From sequence record NC_019500.1: a DNA stretch of 64,000 bases; one strand, 5' to 3'. The translations under genes and the position numbers were made by a program. This document shows, one piece after another, positions 1-32,267 of the stretch (positions are counted from its first letter, which is position 1; the number at the start of each line of letters is the position of its first letter). A model generated the notes under the pieces. It was not told the DNA's origin. It saw only the letters and a list, made by a program, of their open reading frames with translations, and made no database searches. The DNA comes from Escherichia phage Bp7.

Positions 1-507
1 CCTAACTATGTTTGTGACTGGACGTCGTTGCGGGAAGACTTGGCTAAACATGGCATCCGTAATAGCACATTATCAGCACTTATGCCGTGTGAATCAAGCA
101 GCCAGGTTTCCAACTCTACAAACGGTATCGAACCTCCACGTGGTCCGGTAAGTATTAAAGAATCTAAAGAAGGTAACTTCCGTCAGGTAGTTCCTAATGT
201 AGAACATAACCAAGGACTCTACGATTACGCTTGGAGCCTCGCTAAGAAAGGTAATAAACCTTATCTTACCCAAGTGGCAATAGCGTTGAAATGGGTGTGT
301 CAATCGGCATCAGCTAATACATATTATGACCCACAGATTTTTCCAAAAGGAAAAGTTCCGATGTCGGTAATGCTTGATGACCTGCTGTATTTCTGGTACT
401 ACGGTGGTAAGAACCTTTACTATCATAATACCCGTGATGGCTCTGGTACTGATGACTATGAAATCGAAACTCCTAAAGCCGATGATTGTGCAGCTTGTAA
501 GCTTTAA
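1..507 (+). CDS. nrdA: Ribonucleotide reductase large subunit NrdA, C-terminal part (gene continues upstream of window)
   Basis: Frame-1 ORF open from window edge; C-terminus ...DDYEIETPKADDCAACKL resembles class Ia NrdA C-terminal Cys pair; synteny immediately upstream of nrdB. Confidence 0.8.
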   Translation, partial: PNYVCDWTSLREDLAKHGIRNSTLSALMPCESSSQVSNSTNGIEPPRGPVSIKESKEGNFRQVVPNVEHNQGLYDYAWSLAKKGNKPYLTQVAIALKWVCQSASANTYYDPQIFPKGKVPMSVMLDDLLYFWYYGGKNLYYHNTRDGSGTDDYEIETPKADDCAACKL

Positions 508-561
508 TAAAATCCGATTATAATTGACTCACGGATGAGTCACTAACAAAATGAGAATAAT

Positions 562-1236
562 ATGTCTACAGTTTTTAATACTACCCCAGTTGATGTTTTA
601 GTCGAGCCGATGTTCTTTGGTTCAGGATTAGGTATCGCCCGTTATGATATCCAACGTCATAAAGTGTTCGAAGAGCTTTGTGAAAAGCAACTATCATTTT
701 TCTGGCGTCCAGAGGAAGTTAACTTGATGATGGACTCTGCGCAGTTAATAAGCTTCCAGAGTTCCAACAAAATATATTTACCAATAACTTGAAATATCAG
801 TCGCTTTTGGACAGTATTCAGGGCCGGGCTCCTTCTGCTGCACTCCAAGCCTTGATTTCTGACCCTAGCCTTGATACATGGGTGGCAACATGGACCTTTA
901 GTGAAACTATTCACTCGCGTTCGTATACCCATATCATGCGTAACCTCTATACAGACCCATCTAAGGTATTTGATGAAATTCTGTTAGATGACGCTATCAT
1001 GAAGCGCGCTGAATCCATTGGTCGTTATTATGATGACGTTATTGAGAAAACTAGATATTGGCAGAATGCTAAAGCTGATATTGAGTACCAAAAAGAAATT
1101 AACGCAGACGAAGATGATATTGAAGATGCCATAGAGCATGAGATGTATTGGAAACGTGAACTGATGCGTTCTCTTTATCTCTGTTTGCATGTTATCAATG
1201 CCTTAGAAGCTATTCGTTTTTATGTATCTTTTGCGT
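562..1236 (+). CDS. nrdB: Ribonucleotide reductase small subunit NrdB, exon 1 (apparent 1-nt frameshift near 745)
   Basis: [12 protein letters not shown]...EEVNLMMD in frame 1 then continues in frame 3 (...[21 protein letters not shown]...[12 protein letters not shown]); matches T4/E. coli NrdB; exon ends at T1236. Confidence 0.8.
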
Positions 1237-1310
1237 AAAATGCGCCTTTAAACGGTAACGTTTATCGAAAACTCCTTTAATTGCTGGAAAGTCCTTTATA
1301 GGAAAACTAG

Positions 1311-1337
1311 CAGCCAAGGTTTTGCTTGCACCTTTAA
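1311..1337 (+). promoter_or_regulatory. Putative middle promoter (MotA box TTTGCTTGCA, 11 nt, TATAAT) inside intron upstream of endonuclease ORF
   Basis: Sequence motif match to T4 middle promoter consensus. Confidence 0.45.
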
Positions 1338-1381
1338 TTAGTATAATATAAATATGATTATACTTTTAAGAGGATGCACAA

Positions 1382-2188
1382 TTGAACTATAGAAAAATTT
1401 GGATAGATGCTAACGGACCTATACCTAAAGATTCTGATGGAAGAACATACGAAATCCATCATAAAGACGGTAACCGTGAAAATAATGATTTAGATAATTT
1501 GATGTGCCTTTCTATACAGGAACATTATGATATACATTTAGCTCAAAAAGATTACCAGGCTTGTCATGCTATAAAGCTTAGAATGAAATATTCTCCTGAA
1601 GAAATTTCTGAATTAGCTTCTAAAGCCGCAAAATCTAGAGAAATCCAGATTTTTAATATCCCTGAAGTACGAGCTAAAAATATTGCCTCTATTAAATCTA
1701 AGATAGAAAATGGTACATTTCATCTTTTAGACGGTGAAATACAGCGTAAATCTAATTTAAATAGAGTTGCATTAGGTATACATAATTTCTCTAGAGGAGC
1801 CCATGCAAAAGTTAAAGAACGCAATATTGCAGCTATAAAAGAAGGTACTCATGTATTTTGCGGTGGTAAAATGCAGTCAGAAACTCAATCAAAACGGGTA
1901 AATGACGGTTCACATCATTTCTTGTCAGAAGACCATAAGAAAAGAACATCAGCAAAAACATTAGAAATGGTTAAGAACGGGACCCATCCTGCACAAAAAG
2001 AAATCACATGTGATTTCTGCGGTCACATTGGTAAAGGTCCTGGATTTTATCTAAAACATAATGACAGATGTAAATTAAATCCAAATAGAATTCAATTGAA
2101 TTGTCCATATTGTGATAAGAAAGATTTATCACCATCAACATATAAACGATGGCACGGCGACAATTGCAAAGCAAGGTTCAACGACTAG
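1382..2188 (+). CDS. Intron-encoded HNH homing endonuclease (I-TevIII-like), TTG start
   Basis: 268 aa; EIHHKDGNRENNDLDNLMCLSIQEHYDIH HNH motif; C-terminal Cys/His zinc-finger-like pairs; RBS aagagga upstream of TTG. Confidence 0.75.
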   Translation: MNYRKIWIDANGPIPKDSDGRTYEIHHKDGNRENNDLDNLMCLSIQEHYDIHLAQKDYQACHAIKLRMKYSPEEISELASKAAKSREIQIFNIPEVRAKNIASIKSKIENGTFHLLDGEIQRKSNLNRVALGIHNFSRGAHAKVKERNIAAIKEGTHVFCGGKMQSETQSKRVNDGSHHFLSEDHKKRTSAKTLEMVKNGTHPAQKEITCDFCGHIGKGPGFYLKHNDRCKLNPNRIQLNCPYCDKKDLSPSTYKRWHGDNCKARFND

Positions 2189-2324
2189 TCTTCGGACGTA
2201 GGGTCAAGCGACTCGAAATGGGGAGAATCCCTCTGGGATTGTGATATAGTCTGGTCTGCATAGTAATATGTAGCAGTTCATAAGAGAACGGGTTGAGAAT
2301 TAGCGAGCTCAATCGAACATAACG

Positions 2325-2827
2325 GTACCTTTAACTTCCATAAGAACATGGAAATCATGGAAGGTAATGCTAAGATTATGAAGTTCATTGCACGTGATGA
2401 ACAGCTCCACCTTAAAGGCACCCAGTACATTATTCGTCAGCTCCAACTTGGTACTGATGGCGACGAATGGGTTAAAATTGCTCAAGAGTGCGAACAAGAA
2501 GCAGTTGATATTTTCATGGAAGTTAACCGTCAAGAAAAAGAATGGGCCGCTCACCTGTTCAAAGATGGTACTTGCCCTGGATTAAATACTCAGAACATGG
2601 GTGCTTTTGTCGATTACCTGACAGTTTCTCGTATGAAGCAATGTGGCTTACCGTGTCCTATTACTGATGCTCCTACTCGCCATCCTTATCCTTGGATTCG
2701 CGAATACCTGAACTCTGATGCTGTACAGGCTGCTCCTCAGGAAGTGGAAATCAGTTCTTACCTTGTAGCACAAATTGATAACGATGTTGATGAAAAAGTA
2801 ATGGCATCGTACAAGAAATATTTTTAA
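2325..2827 (+). CDS. nrdB: Ribonucleotide reductase small subunit NrdB, exon 2
   Basis: TFNFHKNMEIMEGNAKIMKFIARDEQLHLKGTQ... to C-terminus; matches NrdB iron-ligand region. Confidence 0.8.
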
Positions 2828-2854
2828 GGAATGGGGCTTCGGCCCCTTATTGCT

Positions 2855-3268
2855 ATGAAAGAAATCGCAGACGAATTTAGCTTTATCAAGTACGTCACCC
2901 TAGAACTCCAAGATGACGCCACCATAGCTCCACTCACAGTACCAAATAAACAAAATGTCATATATGCTATAGCGGTTGATGATATACTAGTCTACGTTGG
3001 GAAGACTAAAAATCTTCGTAAGCGCATCAACTACTACCGAACCGCTATTAATCGTAAGGACCAAACGTCGGATTCGACTAAGTCCATTCTGATTCATGAA
3101 GCATTAATGGCTGGTAAAAAGGTAGAGTTCTATGCACGGCAGTGCTTTAATCTGTCGATGACTAACGAACTTGGAACTATGTCAGTTGAGACCATGTCTC
3201 TTGAAGAGCCAATGTTCATAAAGAAATTTAATCCACCTTGGAATACCCAACACCGATTAAAAGGATAA
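2855..3268 (+). CDS. denA: Endonuclease II DenA (GIY-YIG family)
   Basis: MKEIADEFSFIKY...YAIAVDDILVYVGKTKNLRKRINYYRTAINRKD; strong similarity to T4 DenA; start taken at internal ATG matching T4 N-terminus. Confidence 0.85.
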   Translation: MKEIADEFSFIKYVTLELQDDATIAPLTVPNKQNVIYAIAVDDILVYVGKTKNLRKRINYYRTAINRKDQTSDSTKSILIHEALMAGKKVEFYARQCFNLSMTNELGTMSVETMSLEEPMFIKKFNPPWNTQHRLKG

Positions 3269-3272
3269 AGCA

Positions 3273-4421
3273 ATGATTGAATTATATGATAACTTGATGG
3301 CCCTGGTTAAAAACTCGACTAAATCTAAGTTCTTCTTTAAAGACTTTCAGAGTGCGCTAGGAGTCAACTATCGCATCTTTAGTTATAACTATGCCTCGTA
3401 CAGTGATTGGTTGGAAGACGGCGCGCTAGAGGGCCGAGGCATTATGTTTGAAATGGACGAGAACGGTCCAGTACGTATTGCTGCTCGTCCTATGCAAAAG
3501 TTCTTTAACCTTGACGAAAACCCTCTGACCATCGGTCTAGATTTGTCACCAGAAAATATTGACCTCGTAATGGCTAAGGAAGATGGTTCTCTGATTTCTA
3601 CATTCATGGACCGACAGTATCTTTCTGTTAAATCTAAAGGCTCTATCCATTCATCAATGGTGCATGATTCTTTACGGTTCCTTCGTCTCCCTGAGAACGA
3701 GGCTTTTGCCGCACGTCTAGAAGAAATCACCAAAGCTGGGTATACCTGCAACCTTGAATATGTAGCACCTACCAACCGTATCGTTCTGGCTTACCAAGAA
3801 ACAAACCTCATCCTGTTGAACGTTCGTAATAATGAAACAGGTGAATATATTCCGTATGCTGAATTGTTTAAAGATGGTGCCCTGCGTAAGCATTTGGTTG
3901 AAAGCTATGACCTCGCTGAAGGTGATTTCGTAGAAAACATCCGTAAACAAGAAGGTATTGAAGGTTTCATCTTTGTACTGAAAGATGGTACGTTCTTTAA
4001 ACTCAAAACCGCCTGGTACAGTGCACTGCACCATACCAAAGATTCCATTAACAATAACGAACGTTTGTTTGAAGTTGTAGTGGCTGGTGGAACTGATGAC
4101 CTTCGTGGATTGTTCAGTACAGATTCGTTTGCTATCGAGAAAATCGATGCCTTTGAACGTATCCATTTAGATTACTTAGAACAATCATTAGCCTTGTTAG
4201 AAGCAGCGTACTCCCAACTTAAGGGTCGCGACCGTAAGGACTACGCCGTTACTGGTCAACTAATCCTTAAGGACTTTCCAGGGTTGTTCTCTATTCTTAT
4301 GCAGGCGTACGTAGGCGGCATTAATTATGATACGGTCATGGACCAGATTAACTCTGTGTTCTTGAAAAACCATAAAGCCCAAATCCCTGAAAAATATTTG
4401 AAAGAAATTGTGGTAGAGTAG
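3273..4421 (+). CDS. rnlA: RNA ligase 1 (gene 63, tail fiber attachment catalyst)
   Basis: 382 aa; YRIFSYNYASYSDWL...ALEGRGIMFEMD...KEDGSL motifs matching T4 RnlA. Confidence 0.85.
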   Translation: MIELYDNLMALVKNSTKSKFFFKDFQSALGVNYRIFSYNYASYSDWLEDGALEGRGIMFEMDENGPVRIAARPMQKFFNLDENPLTIGLDLSPENIDLVMAKEDGSLISTFMDRQYLSVKSKGSIHSSMVHDSLRFLRLPENEAFAARLEEITKAGYTCNLEYVAPTNRIVLAYQETNLILLNVRNNETGEYIPYAELFKDGALRKHLVESYDLAEGDFVENIRKQEGIEGFIFVLKDGTFFKLKTAWYSALHHTKDSINNNERLFEVVVAGGTDDLRGLFSTDSFAIEKIDAFERIHLDYLEQSLALLEAAYSQLKGRDRKDYAVTGQLILKDFPGLFSILMQAYVGGINYDTVMDQINSVFLKNHKAQIPEKYLKEIVVE

Positions 4422-27387: not shown

Positions 27388-27822
27388 ATGAGTAAAGAGA
27401 TTGAATATAAATTAGAGTCGTTTCAAGATGCTTTGGATGAAGATTTAAAGATTGATGGGACTCGTTTACAGTACGAAGTACAGAACAACGTTTTGCTGCA
27501 CAGCAAATGGCTAAGGCTGTATACGAATTGTAAGAAAGAAATAATGAGATTAGAAATCCAGAAAAAGACCTCACTTAAGAAGCGATTAGATTTCTACACG
27601 GGCCGTGGAGAGCCTGGTGATGAGGTTTGTATGGACCAATATGAGAAGTCTGAATTAAAGACCGTTATGGCTGCGGATTCTAGTGTAATTAAAATCGACA
27701 CATCAATTCAGTATTGGGCTTTATTACAAGACTTTTGTAGTTCAGCACTTGATGCTATTAAGGCGCGTGGTTTTAACCTTAAGACCATGCATGAGATGAG
27801 ACAATTTGAGGCAGGTAAATAA
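27388..27822 (+). CDS. uvsY: Recombination mediator UvsY
   Basis: DGTRLQYEVQNNVLLHSKWLRLY...DTSIQYWALLQDFCSSALDAIKARGF matches T4 UvsY. Confidence 0.85.
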   Translation: MSKEIEYKLESFQDALDEDLKIDGTRLQYEVQNNVLLHSKWLRLYTNCKKEIMRLEIQKKTSLKKRLDFYTGRGEPGDEVCMDQYEKSELKTVMAADSSVIKIDTSIQYWALLQDFCSSALDAIKARGFNLKTMHEMRQFEAGK

Positions 27823-27949
27823 TGAGACGTACTAAAAATACCAAACCCATTAAAGTAGATGCCGATAAAATGAAACTTCTTCAAGAATTCATTAATGCCG
27901 CTTTATCAAGTAATAAATAGATATGTAAGTTAAACTAAGGAGACAATCA

Positions 27950-28116
27950 TGTCAGATAAGATTTGCGTTGTCTGTAAAACTCCAATCGATGCTGCATTGG
28001 TTGTTGAAACAGAAAAAGGTCCGGTTCATCCGGGTTCATGTTATAATTACGTTCAAAGCCTGCCTGTTACGGAAAACACTGAAGAACAGCTGAACGAAAC
28101 CCAATTACTACTTTAG
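27950..28116 (+). CDS. Small Cys-containing protein (uvsY.-2-like), tentative
   Basis: 55 aa; CVVCKTPID...HPGSC. Confidence 0.4.
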
Positions 28117-28145
28117 TCTAGTGAGTCTAGCCCTTTAGGGTTACC

Positions 28146-28175
28146 GGCCCTTCCGAAAGGTTGGGCCTTTTTTGT
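28146..28175 (+). terminator. Hairpin GGCCC...GGGCC + T6
   Basis: Stem-loop followed by TTTTTT between convergent uvsY region and uvsW.1. Confidence 0.4.
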
Positions 28176-28403
28176 TTAGAAATCTTCCTCTTCCTCGTCG
28201 TCCATCGACTCCAATTCAGCTCTCTTACCAGCCAATGCATCACGCACGCTAATATCATCCGAATCACGAAGTTCGGCTTCCTTACTACGAGTTTTGTAAT
28301 ACTTTTCCAATTCCTTCAGACCATCCATAGTCTGACAAGAACCAATTTTAGCCATGAAGCTTTCAATAGATGCTTCCTGAATAACTTCTTTAAAGGTTTT
28401 CAT
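28176..28403 (-). CDS. uvsW.1: UvsW.1
   Basis: 75 aa acidic C-terminus, located downstream of uvsW as in T4. Confidence 0.6.
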   Translation of the reverse strand: MKTFKEVIQEASIESFMAKIGSCQTMDGLKELEKYYKTRSKEAELRDSDDISVRDALAGKRAELESMDDEEEEDF

Positions 28404-29182
28404 AATATTTCCTCGAAAAATTTGGTAACCATTTTACCGTAATGCACATTAGGATAACCGGCTTTAATGGCTTCTTTTGTAAATTTACCAACTTTAAGCT
28501 TTCCTGTATTTATCCAAAGCTCTTTAAGCTCATCATACATTAACCAGTGTGGATATTTCTTAGCCAAAGTAGCTTGCCAATTTTTAGAATGGTCCTCAGA
28601 CCTAAACGATTTCTTTACACCTTTATTGGCTTTGCCAGCTTTTGAACACGTTTCATAATCTCCGGCTTTAATAGGTGTAAATCCTTTCATTGCTTTAGAC
28701 CTTTTGGCTATGGTCTCTTTGGATTGCTTGGAGCCTTTATTTTTGGTCCAAGCCTTTTCTAAAGCTTTTAATTTGGCTTCTGTTAATCCAACTTTAGCCA
28801 TAGCTTTTCGGTGTATTTCTCTTCGTTCATCAGTCCATTCATAAGAACCGTTTGTATTACCAATCATGGCTTCGCTTATTAATCTAGAAGCATTTTCTTT
28901 TAAAATGGAAATAGACCTAGAGCTTATCTCATTTAATCTTTTGCCACATGTCATACCAAATGCGGCACGCCATAATTTTCCACCTTGAGCTTTAGCCAAG
29001 ATTATATGGCCCAAAATATGTTCCCTAATAGTCAATGCAACTAAATTGTTAGGGTCATCGGAACCACCTATCGACTTAGGAATAATATGATGAATTTCGA
29101 TTTTACAGGGCGCAGTAGCTTTGGTCCATCCTCTGGACCTAGCATTCTCTATTAAATCATCGTAAATTTTCTGATAATTCAA
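28400..29182 (-). CDS. HNH homing endonuclease (free-standing, between uvsW and uvsW.1)
   Basis: 260 aa; HHIIPKSIGGSDDPNNLVALTIREH HNH motif; overlapping start/stop with neighbours. Confidence 0.75.
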   Translation of the reverse strand: MNYQKIYDDLIENARSRGWTKATAPCKIEIHHIIPKSIGGSDDPNNLVALTIREHILGHIILAKAQGGKLWRAAFGMTCGKRLNEISSRSISILKENASRLISEAMIGNTNGSYEWTDERREIHRKAMAKVGLTEAKLKALEKAWTKNKGSKQSKETIAKRSKAMKGFTPIKAGDYETCSKAGKANKGVKKSFRSEDHSKNWQATLAKKYPHWLMYDELKELWINTGKLKVGKFTKEAIKAGYPNVHYGKMVTKFFEEIL

Positions 29183-30682
29183 AGCTGCACCTCTTTCATA
29201 ACATAATTAAATTTCTCGTCGGCGTATCGTTGTATACGTTCCAATCCATGTTTCAGGCAATAATTTAAATGAACATATTTCTTTTTAGAATCTTTAGATT
29301 TAGGGCGGACTCCCATATCATCCACGAGGTCCCAGACTTGGGCCACTTGTTTGCTATCGTGCTTACGTAGAACACGCCCAATTGTTTGCAGAACAATGAT
29401 TTTAGATTTTACGCCGTGAGCAAATACAACGTGGTGAAGGTTCTTAACGGAAATACCAGTAGAGAACACACCATAACTTGCCACAACAATAATACCCTTA
29501 CCATTTTCCGCCATTACTTTCAGAGCATTACGCGTTTCGGTATTAACTTCACCTGATACGTAATAAACTTCTTTATGTTGCTCTTTAACCATTTCAAAAA
29601 GAGTTTTACCGTGTTCGATGTTTTTAAACATCAGGAATACGTTCTCTTCTTTCTTAGCGAGTTTAACAGCTAAATTAGCAACCCATTTATTACGACGAGT
29701 AGCCTTAGTAATGACCTTGATTTCTGATTGGTAATCTTTACCTTTCATCTTAACAGTGAATTCGTCTGGGTATCGAAGGAAAATACTGTTGATTTTAAGG
29801 TCGGTAACCTGTCCTTCTTCCATTAACTGGGAAGTGGATACCGGCTTAAACACATCACCAAACAAACCCATATATTGCATTAAATTAGCTTTACCATCTT
29901 TTAAAGAACCAGACAAACCGAATTTAAACATACAGTTGGTTAGGCCTTCGATGATAGTAGAAATAGATTTACCTGTAGCCAAATGGCATTCGTCGTTCAT
30001 AAACATACCGAACTGAGCAAACCATTCTTTAGGTTGCTTGATAGCAGTTTGATAAGTTGAAACGTAAATCATTGCATCAGAATCACGAGCAGTACCTGAA
30101 CGAATACCAAGCATTGCTGCTTTAGGGAACAATCGATAATCGATGAAGTCATTAATCATCTGGTCGACAAGTGCAGTAGTAGGAACCAGAATAAGGATTT
30201 TACCTTCATAGTTCTCAACGTAATATCGACTCAGGAGCGCCTGGATTAATGATTTACCTGCGGATGTAGGTAAATTCAGAATTGCACGACGTTTTGTCAG
30301 GCCGTTGTATACGGCTTCATTCTGATACCAATGAGGCTCAATCTTGGTAGACCCTGAATAAATTTCTTGAGAAGCTACCCATGAATCAAAATCTTCACGA
30401 GAAATATCTTCCTGTTCAAGAATACGCGGGTCAATCCACAGAGAATATTCAAATTGTTCAGCGAACTTTTTAATTTGAGGGACAAGTCCATAAGGGCAAG
30501 TTTACGGCAGTTACGTAATCTAGAAGAAGAAGACTTCCATCCCATTGCCCATAACGAAATTTAGGGTTGAATTTATATCCATCGGCTTCAAAGCTAAAAT
30601 AGTCTCTGAGTTCGTAGAATGTGGATTCATCACACTCAATACGAACATGACTAAAATTATCGAAATGTACTTGAATTTGCAT
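29179..30682 (-). CDS. uvsW: DNA/RNA helicase UvsW (apparent 1-nt frameshift near 30490)
   Basis: N-terminus MQIQVHFDNFSHVRIECDESTFYELRDYFSFEADGYKFNPKFRYGQWDG; after frame change continues ...PYGLVPQIKKF...LPTSAGKS...DECH...QTIGRVLR; matches T4 UvsW in two frames. Confidence 0.8.
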
Positions 30683-30696
30683 AAGTAATTCTCAGT

Positions 30697-30704
30697 TATA
30701 AATA
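30697..30704 (+). promoter_or_regulatory. Late promoter TATAAATA for inh-hoc
   Basis: Exact octamer 33 nt upstream of inh ATG. Confidence 0.5.
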
Positions 30705-30710
30705 TAGTTA

Positions 30711-30718
30711 TATTTATA
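30711..30718 (-). promoter_or_regulatory. Late promoter TATAAATA (minus strand) for uvsW
   Basis: Exact octamer on minus strand upstream of uvsW start. Confidence 0.5.
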
Positions 30719-30737
30719 CACCAACAAGAGACTAATT

Positions 30738-31409
30738 ATGGATACTCAATATATTGAAGAGCTTCGTGCACTCGAAGATAAAAAAGAAGCTAAAGCTAAG
30801 TTAATCGAATACGGCGAACAGTTCGGTTTAAAACTTAAGAAAACCCGTTCGTTTGATAATTTGATTATCGATATCTCTGAAGGCCTTAAAGCCCTGGCTG
30901 ATGAACCACTTCCAGAAACCGAAGGGTTGTCTATTTCTGATTTGATTGATGCTGATAACGAACTCACCGGTGGTAATGACTTTATCGAAGGTGTAGAACC
31001 AGCTAAAGAAGAAGCCACCCTGTTGTTCGATGCTCCTGAGGCTGTAGTCGAAGTCATTGAGGTAGCCGAACTTCCTAAGGTCGAGATTATTGAAGAAGAT
31101 GTCCCATTTGACGAAGAGAAATTCAAAGAGGCTGTAGCCAAGGTTGTTGAATTGGAAAAACCTGTATTCTCTTTACCTGAAAACTTCAGCCCTAATCTTT
31201 TGCTTATCGGTAAGAACCCTGGCTATTGCACCGTTCCTTGGTGGATTTACCAATGGATTTCTGAGACCCCGGATTGGAAAGAACGTCCAACTGCTTTCCA
31301 ACATCCTTCTGCCCACCAAACATTATTTAGTCTGATTTATTACATTAATCGTAATGGTTCAGTATTAGTACGTGAAACTCGTAACTCATCTTTTGTCACT
31401 TTAAAATAA
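30738..31409 (+). CDS. inh: Inhibitor of prohead protease Inh
   Basis: 223 aa; position between uvsW and hoc; size matches T4 Inh. Confidence 0.7.
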   Translation: MDTQYIEELRALEDKKEAKAKLIEYGEQFGLKLKKTRSFDNLIIDISEGLKALADEPLPETEGLSISDLIDADNELTGGNDFIEGVEPAKEEATLLFDAPEAVVEVIEVAELPKVEIIEEDVPFDEEKFKEAVAKVVELEKPVFSLPENFSPNLLLIGKNPGYCTVPWWIYQWISETPDWKERPTAFQHPSAHQTLFSLIYYINRNGSVLVRETRNSSFVTLK

Positions 31410-31418
31410 GGGTTTATT

Positions 31419-32267
31419 ATGGCTTATACCGTAGATATGGCTCCTTTGGCGGCTACGGCCGTTATTGGAGCAACAACCAATTTCACTGCGACCGGTTCCG
31501 GTGCTGCAGCTGAAGGTACCGAATCATTTGTCTGGACCGTTGATGGCGTTCCTCAATCTTCTGTGACTGCTGCAATGGATTATGTTGCTGTTGGCCCGGC
31601 AGGCAGCAAGACTATTAAAGTTGTTGCAACAACTACACCGGCGGACGGCGAACCAGAAACAGCTGAAGCCGAAACAACTTTAACTATCCAGAATAAAACC
31701 ATTTCCGGTGTTTCTGTGACATTAACCCCAGCTTCGATTAATGTTCCGGAAGGCACTCCAGCTTCTTTTAAAGCGGATGTGGTCGGCGCTCCTGCTGGTG
31801 CTACTTTTGCCTATTCTTGGAAGAAAGACGGTTCTCCTGTAGTTGGCACCACGGATACTCTAGCAATCGATACAAGCACTGAAGGTTCACAGGTTATTGA
31901 AGTTTCTGTTGTGGTTTCGGCGACTGATTATAACCCGGCGACTGTCACAAAAACCGGTAATGTAACAGTCACGGCTAAAGTCGCACCGGTTCCGGATGGC
32001 GAATTACCTTACGTTCATCCACTCCCTGTTCGTAATTCAGCATATATTTGGGTTGGTTGGTGGGTTATGGATGAAATCCAGAAAATGACTCTTGAAGGCA
32101 AAGACTGGAAAACAGATGACCCGGATAGCCCGTATTATTTGCACCGATATACACTTCAAAAAATGATTACCGACTATCCAGAGGTTGATGTACAAGAATC
32201 TCGTAATGGTCGAATTATTCATCGCACCGCTTTAGAAGCTGGTATTATATACGATTACGTTTACTAA
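31419..32267 (+). CDS. hoc: Outer capsid protein Hoc (shortened)
   Basis: Ig-like repeats and conserved capsid-binding C-terminus ...LPYVHPLPVRNSAYIWVGWWVMDEIQKMT...YYLHRYTLQKM...; 282 aa vs 376 in T4. Confidence 0.85.
   Translation: MAYTVDMAPLAATAVIGATTNFTATGSGAAAEGTESFVWTVDGVPQSSVTAAMDYVAVGPAGSKTIKVVATTTPADGEPETAEAETTLTIQNKTISGVSVTLTPASINVPEGTPASFKADVVGAPAGATFAYSWKKDGSPVVGTTDTLAIDTSTEGSQVIEVSVVVSATDYNPATVTKTGNVTVTAKVAPVPDGELPYVHPLPVRNSAYIWVGWWVMDEIQKMTLEGKDWKTDDPDSPYYLHRYTLQKMITDYPEVDVQESRNGRIIHRTALEAGIIYDYVY

Follow-up and report, generated by a model that had tools for sequence, protein, structure and literature searches.

A Putative Mob-like HNH Homing Endonuclease Gene and a Co-converted uvsW Tail at the uvsW/uvsW.1 Junction of Escherichia Phage Bp7

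Gene Organization of the Locus

The DNA analyzed here, referred to as the window, is a stretch of 64,000 nucleotides from Escherichia phage Bp7 (NC_019500.1), a JS98-like coliphage (Dhakavirus). On the minus strand of the window, a putative endonuclease gene resides between the helicase gene uvsW and uvsW.1 (Table 1), and the gene identities of all three are far beyond chance. The original prediction described a 260-aa HNH ORF located exactly between its neighbors and overlapping both by 4 nt. Coordinates and direct reading of the sequence agree on the overlaps: the start codon, TTG at 29182–29180 within CTTTGA, shares 4 nt (TTGA) with the uvsW stop codon TGA (29181–29179), and the stop codon, TGA at 28402–28400 within TTATGA, shares 4 nt (ATGA) with the ATG of uvsW.1 (28403–28401). 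The word “exactly” does not hold, because the tail of uvsW is itself replaced as compared with empty sites.

Table 1. Features of the uvsW/uvsW.1 locus in window coordinates.
Feature	Position	Strand	Basis or remark
GC-rich hairpin between converging uvsW.1 and uvsY.-2	28146..28167	.	Fold energies -12.6 and -16.9 kcal/mol
uvsW.1, 75 aa	28176..28403	minus	Pfam UvsW-1, E 2.5e-24; ATG overlaps endonuclease stop
Putative endonuclease gene (free-standing, Mob-like HNH, 260 aa)	28400..29182	minus	ORF listing, profile matches, homologue alignment
C-terminal four-helix domain, aa 196-260	28403..28597	minus	Structure model, pLDDT ~90
HNH catalytic motif IEIHHIIPKSIGGSDDPNNLVALTIREHILGH, aa 28-59	29006..29101	minus	Profile match, homologue alignment, model
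Foreign co-converted uvsW 3' end, ~237 nt	29179..29416	minus	Mismatch profile vs empty-site LHE83
uvsW helicase gene, net +1 frameshift	29179..30682	minus	UvsW_N and Helicase_C/ResIII matches on ORFs
Shine-Dalgarno GAGGTG	29188..29193	minus	5 nt before TTG start, within new uvsW tail
GGC (Gly) codon in UvsW FAH-G-VKSK	29413..29415	minus	CCR (Pro) in empty-site relatives; left edge of tract
Dense uvsW mutational patch	30481..30535	minus	Alignment to relatives; private to window genome
T4-type late promoter motif TATAAATA	30711..30718	minus	~29 nt upstream of uvsW ATG

The TTG start, in place of ATG, was absent from the original prediction. No in-frame ATG, GTG, or TTG is found upstream of it, and the first in-frame ATG of the endonuclease is that of Met77, from which translation would lose the HNH motif. 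At exactly the position of the TTG, orthologues from other genera carry ATG, and their products likewise open with MNYQ, MNYK, or MNYE. Several GenBank records mis-annotate endonuclease ORFs at this site, having overlooked the TTG start.

The promoter motif listed in Table 1 is the sole T4-type late promoter motif on the minus strand between 28100 and 30800, and neither the late nor the MotA-type middle promoter pattern occurs on the minus strand from 28176 to 30700. No convincing signal of a mobE-style middle promoter, an internal terminator, or an RBS-sequestering hairpin was found at the endonuclease gene. The hairpin between uvsW.1 and uvsY.-2 lies at the end of the transcription unit and is followed by a T-run on the plus strand only; a conserved bidirectional terminator has been described downstream of uvsW.1 (PMC1524935). 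The single late promoter upstream of uvsW and the overlaps at both ends support the earlier view that the endonuclease gene is embedded in the uvsW transcription unit.

The uvsW gene of the window is frameshifted. Its N-terminal ORF (30470–30682) ends early, and the remaining frame is open to the stop at 29179 with no start codon before 30159; UvsW of relatives is intact with 498 aa. The mutational patch consists of 13 substitutions, a 5-nt insertion at 30509–30513, and a 2-nt insertion at 30496–30498 whose placement depends on the alignment. None of 450 matching phage records has this patch, and the frameshift is absent from UGJNEcP3, UGJNEcP4, and the Logan contig L084, all of which harbor the same endonuclease gene. 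A tie between frameshift and endonuclease, the former having been said to lie near the element, is rejected: the frameshift is located 1.3 kb from the ORF, is private to the window genome, and is missing in the other carriers and in the 450 records. As a separate matter, the endonuclease may be expressed weakly or not at all in the window genome, given its TTG start and the frameshift in upstream uvsW.

Protein Family and Domains

Judging from its sequence, the ORF is a member of the T4 Mob-like HNH homing endonuclease family. A profile search detects the Pfam HNH domain (PF01844) at aa 28–50 with 26.7 bits (cut-off 21.4), PHROG 655 “homing endonuclease” matches aa 1–257 with an E-value of 3e-47, and mobE-annotated proteins share 33% identity over 98–99% of the length. 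The residues E29, H31, H32, N46, H55, and H59 are invariant among the homologues (n = 19), and alignment pairs the motif with HNH domains in Cas8-HNH and McrA. These matches and the invariant catalytic residues bear out the HNH endonuclease assignment of the original prediction. The opposite outcome, an ancestral and non-nuclease protein, is contradicted by the homologues, which keep the nuclease residues, and by the sporadic occurrence of the gene. The gene is free-standing: uvsW is colinear with empty-site alleles except for the tail, and neither intron nor intein is present.

In the structure model, the N-terminal domain is composed of two strands and a helix (pLDDT ~90), and a basic linker of low model confidence leads to the C-terminal four-helix domain. 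Foldseek with the full model returns HNH-domain matches only, and these are weak (E ~0.8). The C-terminal domain has no significant match in Pfam or PDB, even when the isolated domain is searched by structure, and it is for this reason only presumed to be a DNA-binding module. Novelty in kind is slight, as free-standing T4-like HNH homing endonucleases are textbook knowledge and the gene is already annotated in relatives.

Distribution of Carriers and Empty Sites

Most of the ~50 close relatives of the window phage have an empty site. The locus spans 2115 nt in most close Dhakavirus relatives and 2894–2901 nt when occupied; only four of the 672 phage records that match the locus cover at least 80% of it. 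The uvsW/uvsW.1 junction is uninterrupted in all five relatives fetched (JS98, 04086, LHE83, WG01, and JS10). The same gene is found only in UGJNEcP3/P4, where it is annotated as a homing endonuclease, and in two SRA contigs. The UGJNEcP3/P4 protein is 98.8% identical to that of the window, and its gene likewise sits between uvsW and uvsW.1 and overlaps both in the same way.

More distant orthologues (44–76% identity) are located directly 3′ of uvsW in six other Straboviridae genera, making seven with Dhakavirus. Those of Enterobacter phage EnC07 and Acinetobacter phage AbTZA1 are labeled “putative Mob-like HNH homing endonuclease.” Occupancy is patchy: four Karamvirus records are occupied and 28 are empty, and Gaprivervirus and Acinetobacter phages are mixed. 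Copies in Maestro, Morttis, and AB-Navy71 are broken (split or truncated). At 90% identity, the lineage forms only ~14 clusters in a set of 5.8 billion proteins, and a scan of IMG/VR gave no orthologues, only N-terminal paralogue matches of at most 52% identity. In the literature searched, no account of an endonuclease at the uvsW/uvsW.1 junction was found, nor were cleavage or homing experiments on this lineage.

The Foreign uvsW Tract

The insertion is accompanied by a replacement of the UvsW C-terminus, which reads VMKEVQL* in the window and VMKQVDL* in the native form. Compared with LHE83, mismatches amount to 0.8% at positions -603 to -241 and 27.5% at -240 to -1, and synonymous sites in the foreign tract are saturated (pS 0.78). 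The tract is common to UGJNEcP3 (95%) and L084 (one difference). No donor of the tract was found: the best match after UGJNEcP3/P4 is ESCO10 with 81%, and all others are at most 78%. On the other side of the gene there is no downstream co-conversion tract; uvsW.1 is native-like, with 2 mismatches in 228 positions against the empty-site phage 04086. The foreign tract is a one-sided co-conversion tract, and the mobile unit is larger than the ORF, covering ~28404–29416 with the endonuclease gene and ~237 nt of foreign sequence at the 3′ end of uvsW. It is a clean natural case of an insertion that swaps the tail of a host gene without damage.

Similar edges are found in other genera. Mismatches in Karamvirus rise from 1.7 to 25.4% with the change at -237, the mismatch cluster of Gaprivervirus likewise begins at -237, and the dense tract between PhT2 and PhT2-v2 begins 7 nt before the same Pro/Gly codon. 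In Dhaka-, Karam-, Gapriver-, and Hadassahvirus, the edge is located at one and the same Pro-to-Gly codon. The pair PhT2 and PhT2-v2 was considered as direct evidence of homing, with PhT2-v2 as a lab-evolved PhT2, and this was rejected, as the preprint lists PhT2-v2 among its isolated phages and the differences from PhT2 are scattered. In P479, SP18, PSD2002, PST, and PhT2-v2, the last codons and the stop of the endonuclease ORF are clearly those of the native uvsW tail. A tail duplication is not demonstrable in the window, which has only TTATGA and a GAGG in common with the native tail.

A Candidate Cleavage Site and Immunity

The common left edge of the tract suggests a cut ~235–260 bp upstream of the endonuclease gene. 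The Gly codon at this edge is a candidate cleavage or immunity position, and in the homologous empty allele the cut is predicted around window position 29413–29420. The enzyme would act at or next to the codons CAY-CCR-GTA-AAA (His-Pro-Val-Lys), just before helicase motif VI, and the change of CC to GG, which is present in every type 1 carrier examined in five genera, may confer self-immunity on carriers. The Pro-to-Gly change was also considered as a universal mark of carriers and was rejected. T4 and Acinetobacter phage AM101 have the Gly allele with an empty site, and AsFcp_2 and PVA23, carriers of distant orthologues, retain Pro. Because of these exceptions, the evidence retained is the position of the tract edge alone.

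From these features a broader proposal is drawn tentatively, its chance being put somewhat below one half: the uvsW tail may be a landing site shared across Straboviridae genera by two HNH families, and the element would cut ~235–260 bp away, be kept from self-cleavage by the CC-to-GG change, and provide a substitute UvsW C-terminus. If so, the element would preserve UvsW and keep uvsW.1 translationally coupled, and the Gly-bearing empty sites of T4 and AM101 would be immune survivors of past invasions. The sharp edge recurring in four genera makes for a precise and cheaply testable prediction of the cleavage or immunity site.

A competing account of the edge, to which a not quite even chance is also assigned, places the cut at the insertion point or close to it and takes the Pro/Gly codon as the place where conservation first suffices for crossovers to be resolved. 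Indeed, motif V is encoded just before the edge in a 90-nt stretch that is near-identical even between genera, and the last 240 nt of uvsW are diverse even among empty sites (8.8% vs 1.9%). This account is also favored by the Gly codon in the empty-site genomes T4 and AM101, and by SP18, which has the second type of endonuclease without any recoded tract. However, in four genera in which donors and recipients differ, the edge departs from the same codon by no more than 7 nt, and conserved sequence equally capable of crossover is also present past the edge on its downstream side, around the QTIGR codons. YenP8 is a further difficulty for it: this phage keeps a short patch at -237 to -208, and much of the sequence from the patch to the gene is native-like, which is the outcome expected from selection for an immunity patch.

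Proposed Mechanism and the State of the Gene

Taken as a whole, the locus is very probably explained by a Mob-like HNH homing endonuclease gene that is accompanied by a foreign uvsW tract, is transcribed from the uvsW promoter, and may encode an enzyme cutting at a distance. Having no promoter of its own, the gene would be expressed from the late uvsW promoter on a uvsW–endonuclease–uvsW.1 message, with its Shine-Dalgarno sequence supplied by the new uvsW tail. Promoterless, overlapping, and translationally coupled mob genes have been described (PMC2988022). Since the start is a weak TTG that overlaps with the uvsW stop codon, low and translationally coupled expression is expected, and the overlap of the endonuclease stop with the uvsW.1 start would keep uvsW.1 coupled. 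In a mixed infection, the enzyme would presumably nick or cut uvsW in a related phage that lacks the endonuclease gene, and repair from the carrier genome would then copy this gene along with the stretch of uvsW that separates it from the cut.

It is improbable that the gene is instead a dead or dying relic, in which the ORF is intact but unexpressed or immobile here and is inherited vertically. Such a relic would fit the TTG start, the frameshift in upstream uvsW, by which ribosomes may miss the coupled start, the decay of the lineage in Maestro, Morttis, and AB-Navy71, and its rarity among known proteins. However, the ORF is full-length with every HNH residue kept and has its own strong Shine-Dalgarno sequence. 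Furthermore, the endonuclease is under purifying selection. The window and UGJNEcP3, its nearest copy, differ by 14 synonymous and 2 non-synonymous changes (dN/dS ~0.035), and an identical protein is encoded in two SRA assemblies on different flanks, the contigs differing by 3–7% in the flanks and by 0.5% in the gene. TTG is also the start codon of intact Karamvirus copies and of the second endonuclease family, and hence is not a recent defect.

Domestication, that is, a nuclease serving recombination or repair with UvsW and UvsW.1, or a weapon against competitors, in place of a selfish homing element, is highly unlikely: the constant flanking of the gene by two conserved recombination genes of the uvsW operon, seen in seven genera, and the purifying selection speak for it, but the gene is absent from most close relatives, whose uvsW and uvsW.1 are intact, its copies decay, it is accompanied by a foreign flanking tract typical of homing, a different endonuclease can take its place at the same site, and its closest relatives are free-standing mob genes at unrelated loci.

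Comparison with Known Systems

In T4, the homing endonuclease of the same neighborhood is SegE (PMC2988022), a GIY-YIG enzyme of an unrelated family. As the original prediction had it, segE lies on the opposite side of uvsW, between inh and uvsW, and the uvsW/uvsW.1 junction of T4 is empty. In the window, segE is absent, and inh and uvsW are only a 55-nt promoter region apart. The further suggestion of an independent invasion stands as far as the families are unrelated, but it was not a one-off event, as the same lineage is found at this site in seven Straboviridae genera. T4 SegG and SegF, known for “intronless homing,” are free-standing endonucleases too, with the GIY-YIG nuclease fold and at different loci; for SegG, cleavage at a distant site has been demonstrated, and for the window endonuclease it is inferred. 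From the gene of UGJNEcP3/UGJNEcP4, that of the window differs only in genomic background, notably by the private uvsW frameshift.

T4 MobE, encoded between nrdA and nrdB, likewise has an N-terminal HNH domain, an MNY start, and a distinct C-terminal region. Its gene is also promoterless and uses an upstream promoter, and its start overlaps the upstream stop, suggesting coupling (PMC2988022). The mobE start codon is AUG in contrast to TTG of the window gene. The two loci, nrdA/nrdB and the uvsW tail, are different, so that the target of the window endonuclease is presumably different as well. Nicking has been shown for MobE, whereas the window enzyme is known from sequence.

The closest parallel in position is a second family, type 2 (HNH, NUMOD3, and helix-turn-helix; 230–231 aa), found in PSD2002, UP19, ESCO10, SP18, T6, and Yersinia phage PST, the last of which has it annotated as “mobD/MobE.” Its genes share the insertion site and the TTG start overlapping the uvsW stop, follow a similarly replaced uvsW tail (KEVQI* or KEVKL*), have a native uvsW tail as their last codons, and are accompanied by a comparable one-sided foreign tract from -226, except in SP18, which lacks a recoded tract. 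The proteins are 32–33% identical to that of the window, mostly in the HNH domain, and their C-terminus consists of NUMOD3 repeats and an I-TevI-like DNA-binding domain in contrast to the helical domain of the latter. T6 and PST carry both the type 2 endonuclease and segE. Two endonuclease families alternate at one site.

The Endonuclease Gene and Its Product

The window belongs to a T4-type coliphage that resembles JS98 (genus Dhakavirus), in which, as the original prediction had stated, an HNH ORF of 260 aa is located between uvsW and uvsW.1 and overlaps both. By direct sequence reading, its start codon is found within CTTTGA, overlapping the uvsW stop, and its TGA stop within TTATGA, overlapping the uvsW.1 ATG. 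The start codon is TTG, a point added to that prediction. This TTG is the true start, because ATG occupies exactly the same codon in orthologues of other genera and opens the same MNYQ/MNYK/MNYE, because there is no in-frame start further upstream and the first internal ATG would remove the catalytic motif, and because a GAGGTG Shine-Dalgarno sequence is found 5 nt upstream.

Features of the uvsW region and other features of the window
Feature	Positions	Strand
NrdB-like ORF	789-1238
Second HNH endonuclease ORF, 268 aa (MNYRKIWIDANGPIPKDSDGRTYEIHHKDGNREN...), TTG start	1347-2188	plus
Mosaic patch, uvsY 3' end and small-ORF region	27738-27873
GC-rich hairpin facing the converging uvsY.-2 gene	28146-28167
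uvsW.1	28403-28176	minus
Endonuclease ORF, 260 aa	29182-28400	minus
Edge codon GGC in uvsW	29413-29415
uvsW	30682-29179	minus
Frameshift patch in uvsW, 55 bp	30481-30535	minus
Late promoter motif TATAAATA	30697-30704	plus
Late promoter motif TATAAATA	30711-30718	minus
Mosaic patch, parts of inh and hoc	31289-32100

The product has a Pfam HNH match at aa 28-50, above the curated cut-off, and matches PHROG 655 ("homing endonuclease") over its whole length (E 3e-47). Across 19 aligned homologues, residues E29, H31, H32, N46, H55, and H59 never vary. AlphaFold models the HNH domain at the N terminus (aa 1-80) with confidence (pLDDT ~90), then a basic linker of low confidence, and at the C terminus a four-helix domain (aa 196-260), again with confidence. 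A structure search found no match of this C-terminal domain to a known DNA-binding fold, and for this reason we only infer its DNA-binding role. The best full-length matches beyond its own orthologue group are mobE-annotated endonucleases (~33% identity). The recognition of the ORF as a homing endonuclease gene is correct: it is a genuine gene of the Mob-like HNH type and belongs to a known kind of element; near-identical and orthologous copies are already annotated as homing endonuclease.

Sporadic Distribution

Escherichia phages UGJNEcP3 and UGJNEcP4 are 96.9% identical to the 2.9-kb region around the ORF, and JS98, WG01, QL01, LHE83, 04086, and many more are 92-95% identical over the same region minus a gap of ~786 nt. 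At least 80% of the locus is covered in just 4 of 672 matching phage records. In JS98, 04086, LHE83, WG01, and JS10, uvsW ends in NYVMKQVDL and its stop overlaps the uvsW.1 ATG, with no gene between. Orthologues found by tblastn (44-76% identity) are in every case directly 3' of uvsW: in Gaprivervirus (P479, YenP8), Karamvirus (EnC07, UFV01, KMB20, KMB17), Acinetobacter phages (genera Hadassahvirus and Lazarusvirus), Angelvirus (AsFcp_2), and Schizotequatrovirus (PVA23). Carriers are a minority within each genus; for example, 4 Karamvirus records are occupied and 28 empty, and occupied and empty sites are mixed in Gaprivervirus and the Acinetobacter phages. Split or truncated copies at the same site in Maestro (2501-3201 of locus L011), Morttis, and AB-Navy71, broken by frameshifts or a deletion, are decaying orthologues. 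The alternative of an ancestral ORF is thus answered by the comparison with relatives, which shows sporadic mobile insertion with clean empty sites; together with the decaying copies, this is the usual life cycle of homing endonuclease genes.

The window's copy itself is under purifying selection, as it differs from that of UGJNEcP3 by 14 synonymous and 2 non-synonymous changes (dN/dS ~0.035). An identical protein is encoded on two SRA-derived contigs, and on one of these the gene is 0.5% and the inh/hoc flank ~7% different from the window.

The same junction is also occupied by a second endonuclease type of 230-231 aa, composed of an HNH domain, NUMOD3 repeats, and an I-TevI-like DNA-binding (HTH) tail, which shares just 32-33% identity with the window's protein. 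It is found in Dhakavirus PSD2002, UP19, and ESCO10, in Gaprivervirus SP18 and others, and in Tequatrovirus PST, T6, EC121, ACG-C40, and HY03, and starts with TTG in PSD2002, UP19, SP18, PST, and ESCO10. The contrast originally drawn with T4, where segE lies on the other side of uvsW, holds for T4 itself, but the uvsW/uvsW.1 site is commonly occupied in other T-evens, and PST has both the type 2 gene and segE.

In GenBank, the CDSs of SP18 (L015 1743-2342), KMB17 (L088 1968-2441), and PVA23 (L010 2729-3298; all locus positions) begin at a downstream ATG, and the HNH domain is lost from them as annotated. The TTG overlapping the uvsW stop was overlooked in SP18 and KMB17; the upstream start in PVA23 is ATG.

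A Foreign uvsW Tract and Sparing of the Neighbors

Compared with five empty-site Dhakaviruses, uvsW of the window diverges by 0-6% over most of the gene and by 22-36% in its final ~240 nt, the stretch adjoining the endonuclease gene on the upstream side. A per-base comparison with LHE83 gives 3 mismatches (0.8%) at -603 to -241, counted back from the uvsW 3' end, and 66 (27.5%) at -240 to -1. Synonymous sites of the tract are saturated (pS 0.78, pN 0.145), and therefore its donor is as distant as another genus; the donor was not found, the best non-self match being 81%. The tract is common to the window, UGJNEcP3, and SRA-derived contig L084. No such tract is found downstream, uvsW.1 having 2 mismatches to that of 04086 in 228 positions, and so the mobile unit of this genome spans ~28404-29416. 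In PSD2002 and UP19, the type 2 tract begins at -226; in SP18, mismatch comparison shows none.

Both neighbors are spared by the insertion. The endonuclease ORF of relatives runs into the native uvsW tail, whose stop codon it uses: P479 ends KF/IKQVEI, and 25 nt there match the VR7 uvsW tail and uvsW.1 ATG exactly; PhT2-v2 ends DGT on native ATGGGACCTAA; and type 2 ORFs end NLMKQVDL (PSD2002 and UP19), NLIKQVEI (SP18), or RKTVNL (PST, the T4 tail). Upstream, the element provides a substitute uvsW tail (VMKEVQL in the window, VMKEVQI or VMKEVKL in type 2, VVKHVEL in P479) with the endonuclease Shine-Dalgarno sequence and a stop overlapping the endonuclease start. UvsW is therefore full length, and the ribosome-binding context of uvsW.1 is kept. 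For the window, tail reuse is read from the relatives, since its downstream copy has diverged and has just GAGG and TTATGA in common with the native tail.

The Tract Edge

Dense mismatches start at nearly the same point in different genera: at -238/-235 in the window vs LHE83 (Dhakavirus), at -237 in EnC07 and KMB17 vs PG7 (Karamvirus) and in P479 and YenP8 vs VR7 (Gaprivervirus), and 7 nt before the homologous codon in PhT2-v2 vs PhT2 (Hadassahvirus). The edge codon, in FAH-P/G-VKSK just upstream of the helicase motif VI codons (QTIGRVLR), is Pro (CCR) in empty-site LHE83, PG7, VR7, and PhT2 and Gly (GGN) in all type-1 carriers (the window's lineage) examined in five genera. In YenP8, a short patch (-237 to -208) is kept though native-like sequence makes up much of the interval up to the gene, as we would expect if the patch shields the carrier from its own enzyme. 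Because of these three observations, the enzyme may have its cleavage or recognition site ~235-260 bp away from the gene, with slightly less than an even chance. However, Gly is present with an empty site in T4 and AM101, where it may mark genomes that lost the endonuclease and stayed immune, or may have no bearing; Pro is kept in the distant carriers AsFcp_2 and PVA23; and conservation is high in the 90 nt before the edge, so that crossovers might simply resolve there and the recurring edge would mark no cleavage site. AM101 harbors nearly the whole carrier-type tract, identical to fHyAci03 from -334 to -46. A literature search found no paper describing this endonuclease site, and therefore the tract edge and uvsW tail reuse are perhaps modest new details of an otherwise ordinary element.

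The uvsW Frameshift and Other Features

The frameshift originally noted near the element is present in the sequence: in a patch of uvsW, defined against UGJNEcP3, JS98, PSD2002, UP19, and L084, 13 bases are substituted and two insertions add 5 nt and 2 nt, and the net +1 shift closes the reading frame at 30470. The first start codon of the downstream frame comes after the Walker A motif. But 1.3 kb separate the patch from the ORF and 1.07 kb separate it from the tract edge, and UvsW is intact (498 aa) in three further genomes that carry this endonuclease, so no link to the element is seen. The patch occurs in none of 450 matching phage records, nor in a metagenomic contig with an identical endonuclease, and may be a genuine pseudogene mutation, a scar left by repair, or an artefact of sequencing.

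Of the two mosaic patches, the one at uvsY is 15-30% divergent from UGJNEcP3 and identical to 04086 and LHE83, and that in inh and hoc is 10-19% divergent from UGJNEcP3 and JS98 and identical to PSD2002 and WG01. The TTG of the second HNH ORF, which comes after the NrdB-like ORF, has TAAGAGGA before it as Shine-Dalgarno sequence, and a late promoter motif, TATAAATA, stands upstream at 1347-1354. We take this ORF to resemble an intron-borne nrdB ORF of the full-length I-TevIII type; in window positions 1-4000, an Rfam scan at the gathering threshold gave no intron model.

Expression and Comparison With T4 Endonuclease Genes

Two late promoter motifs stand back to back in the 55-nt inh-uvsW gap, from which segE is absent, unlike in T4. 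Neither late nor MotA-type middle promoter motifs were found by a motif scan inside or just before the endonuclease ORF, and the sole minus-strand late motif in 28100-30800 is upstream of uvsW; the gene is thus a promoterless cassette in the late uvsW message. Low, coupled translation is predicted because the TTG overlaps the upstream stop. TTG is also used in intact Karamvirus copies and in type 2 of three genera, and orthologues elsewhere have ATG with the same overlap, so TTG is not forced by the overlap. Several mob and seg genes of T4 are described as promoterless cassettes of this kind (PMC2988022), and the T4 mob genes, in which an HNH domain is fused to a distinct C-terminal region, have the same layout as the window's protein (PMC2988022).
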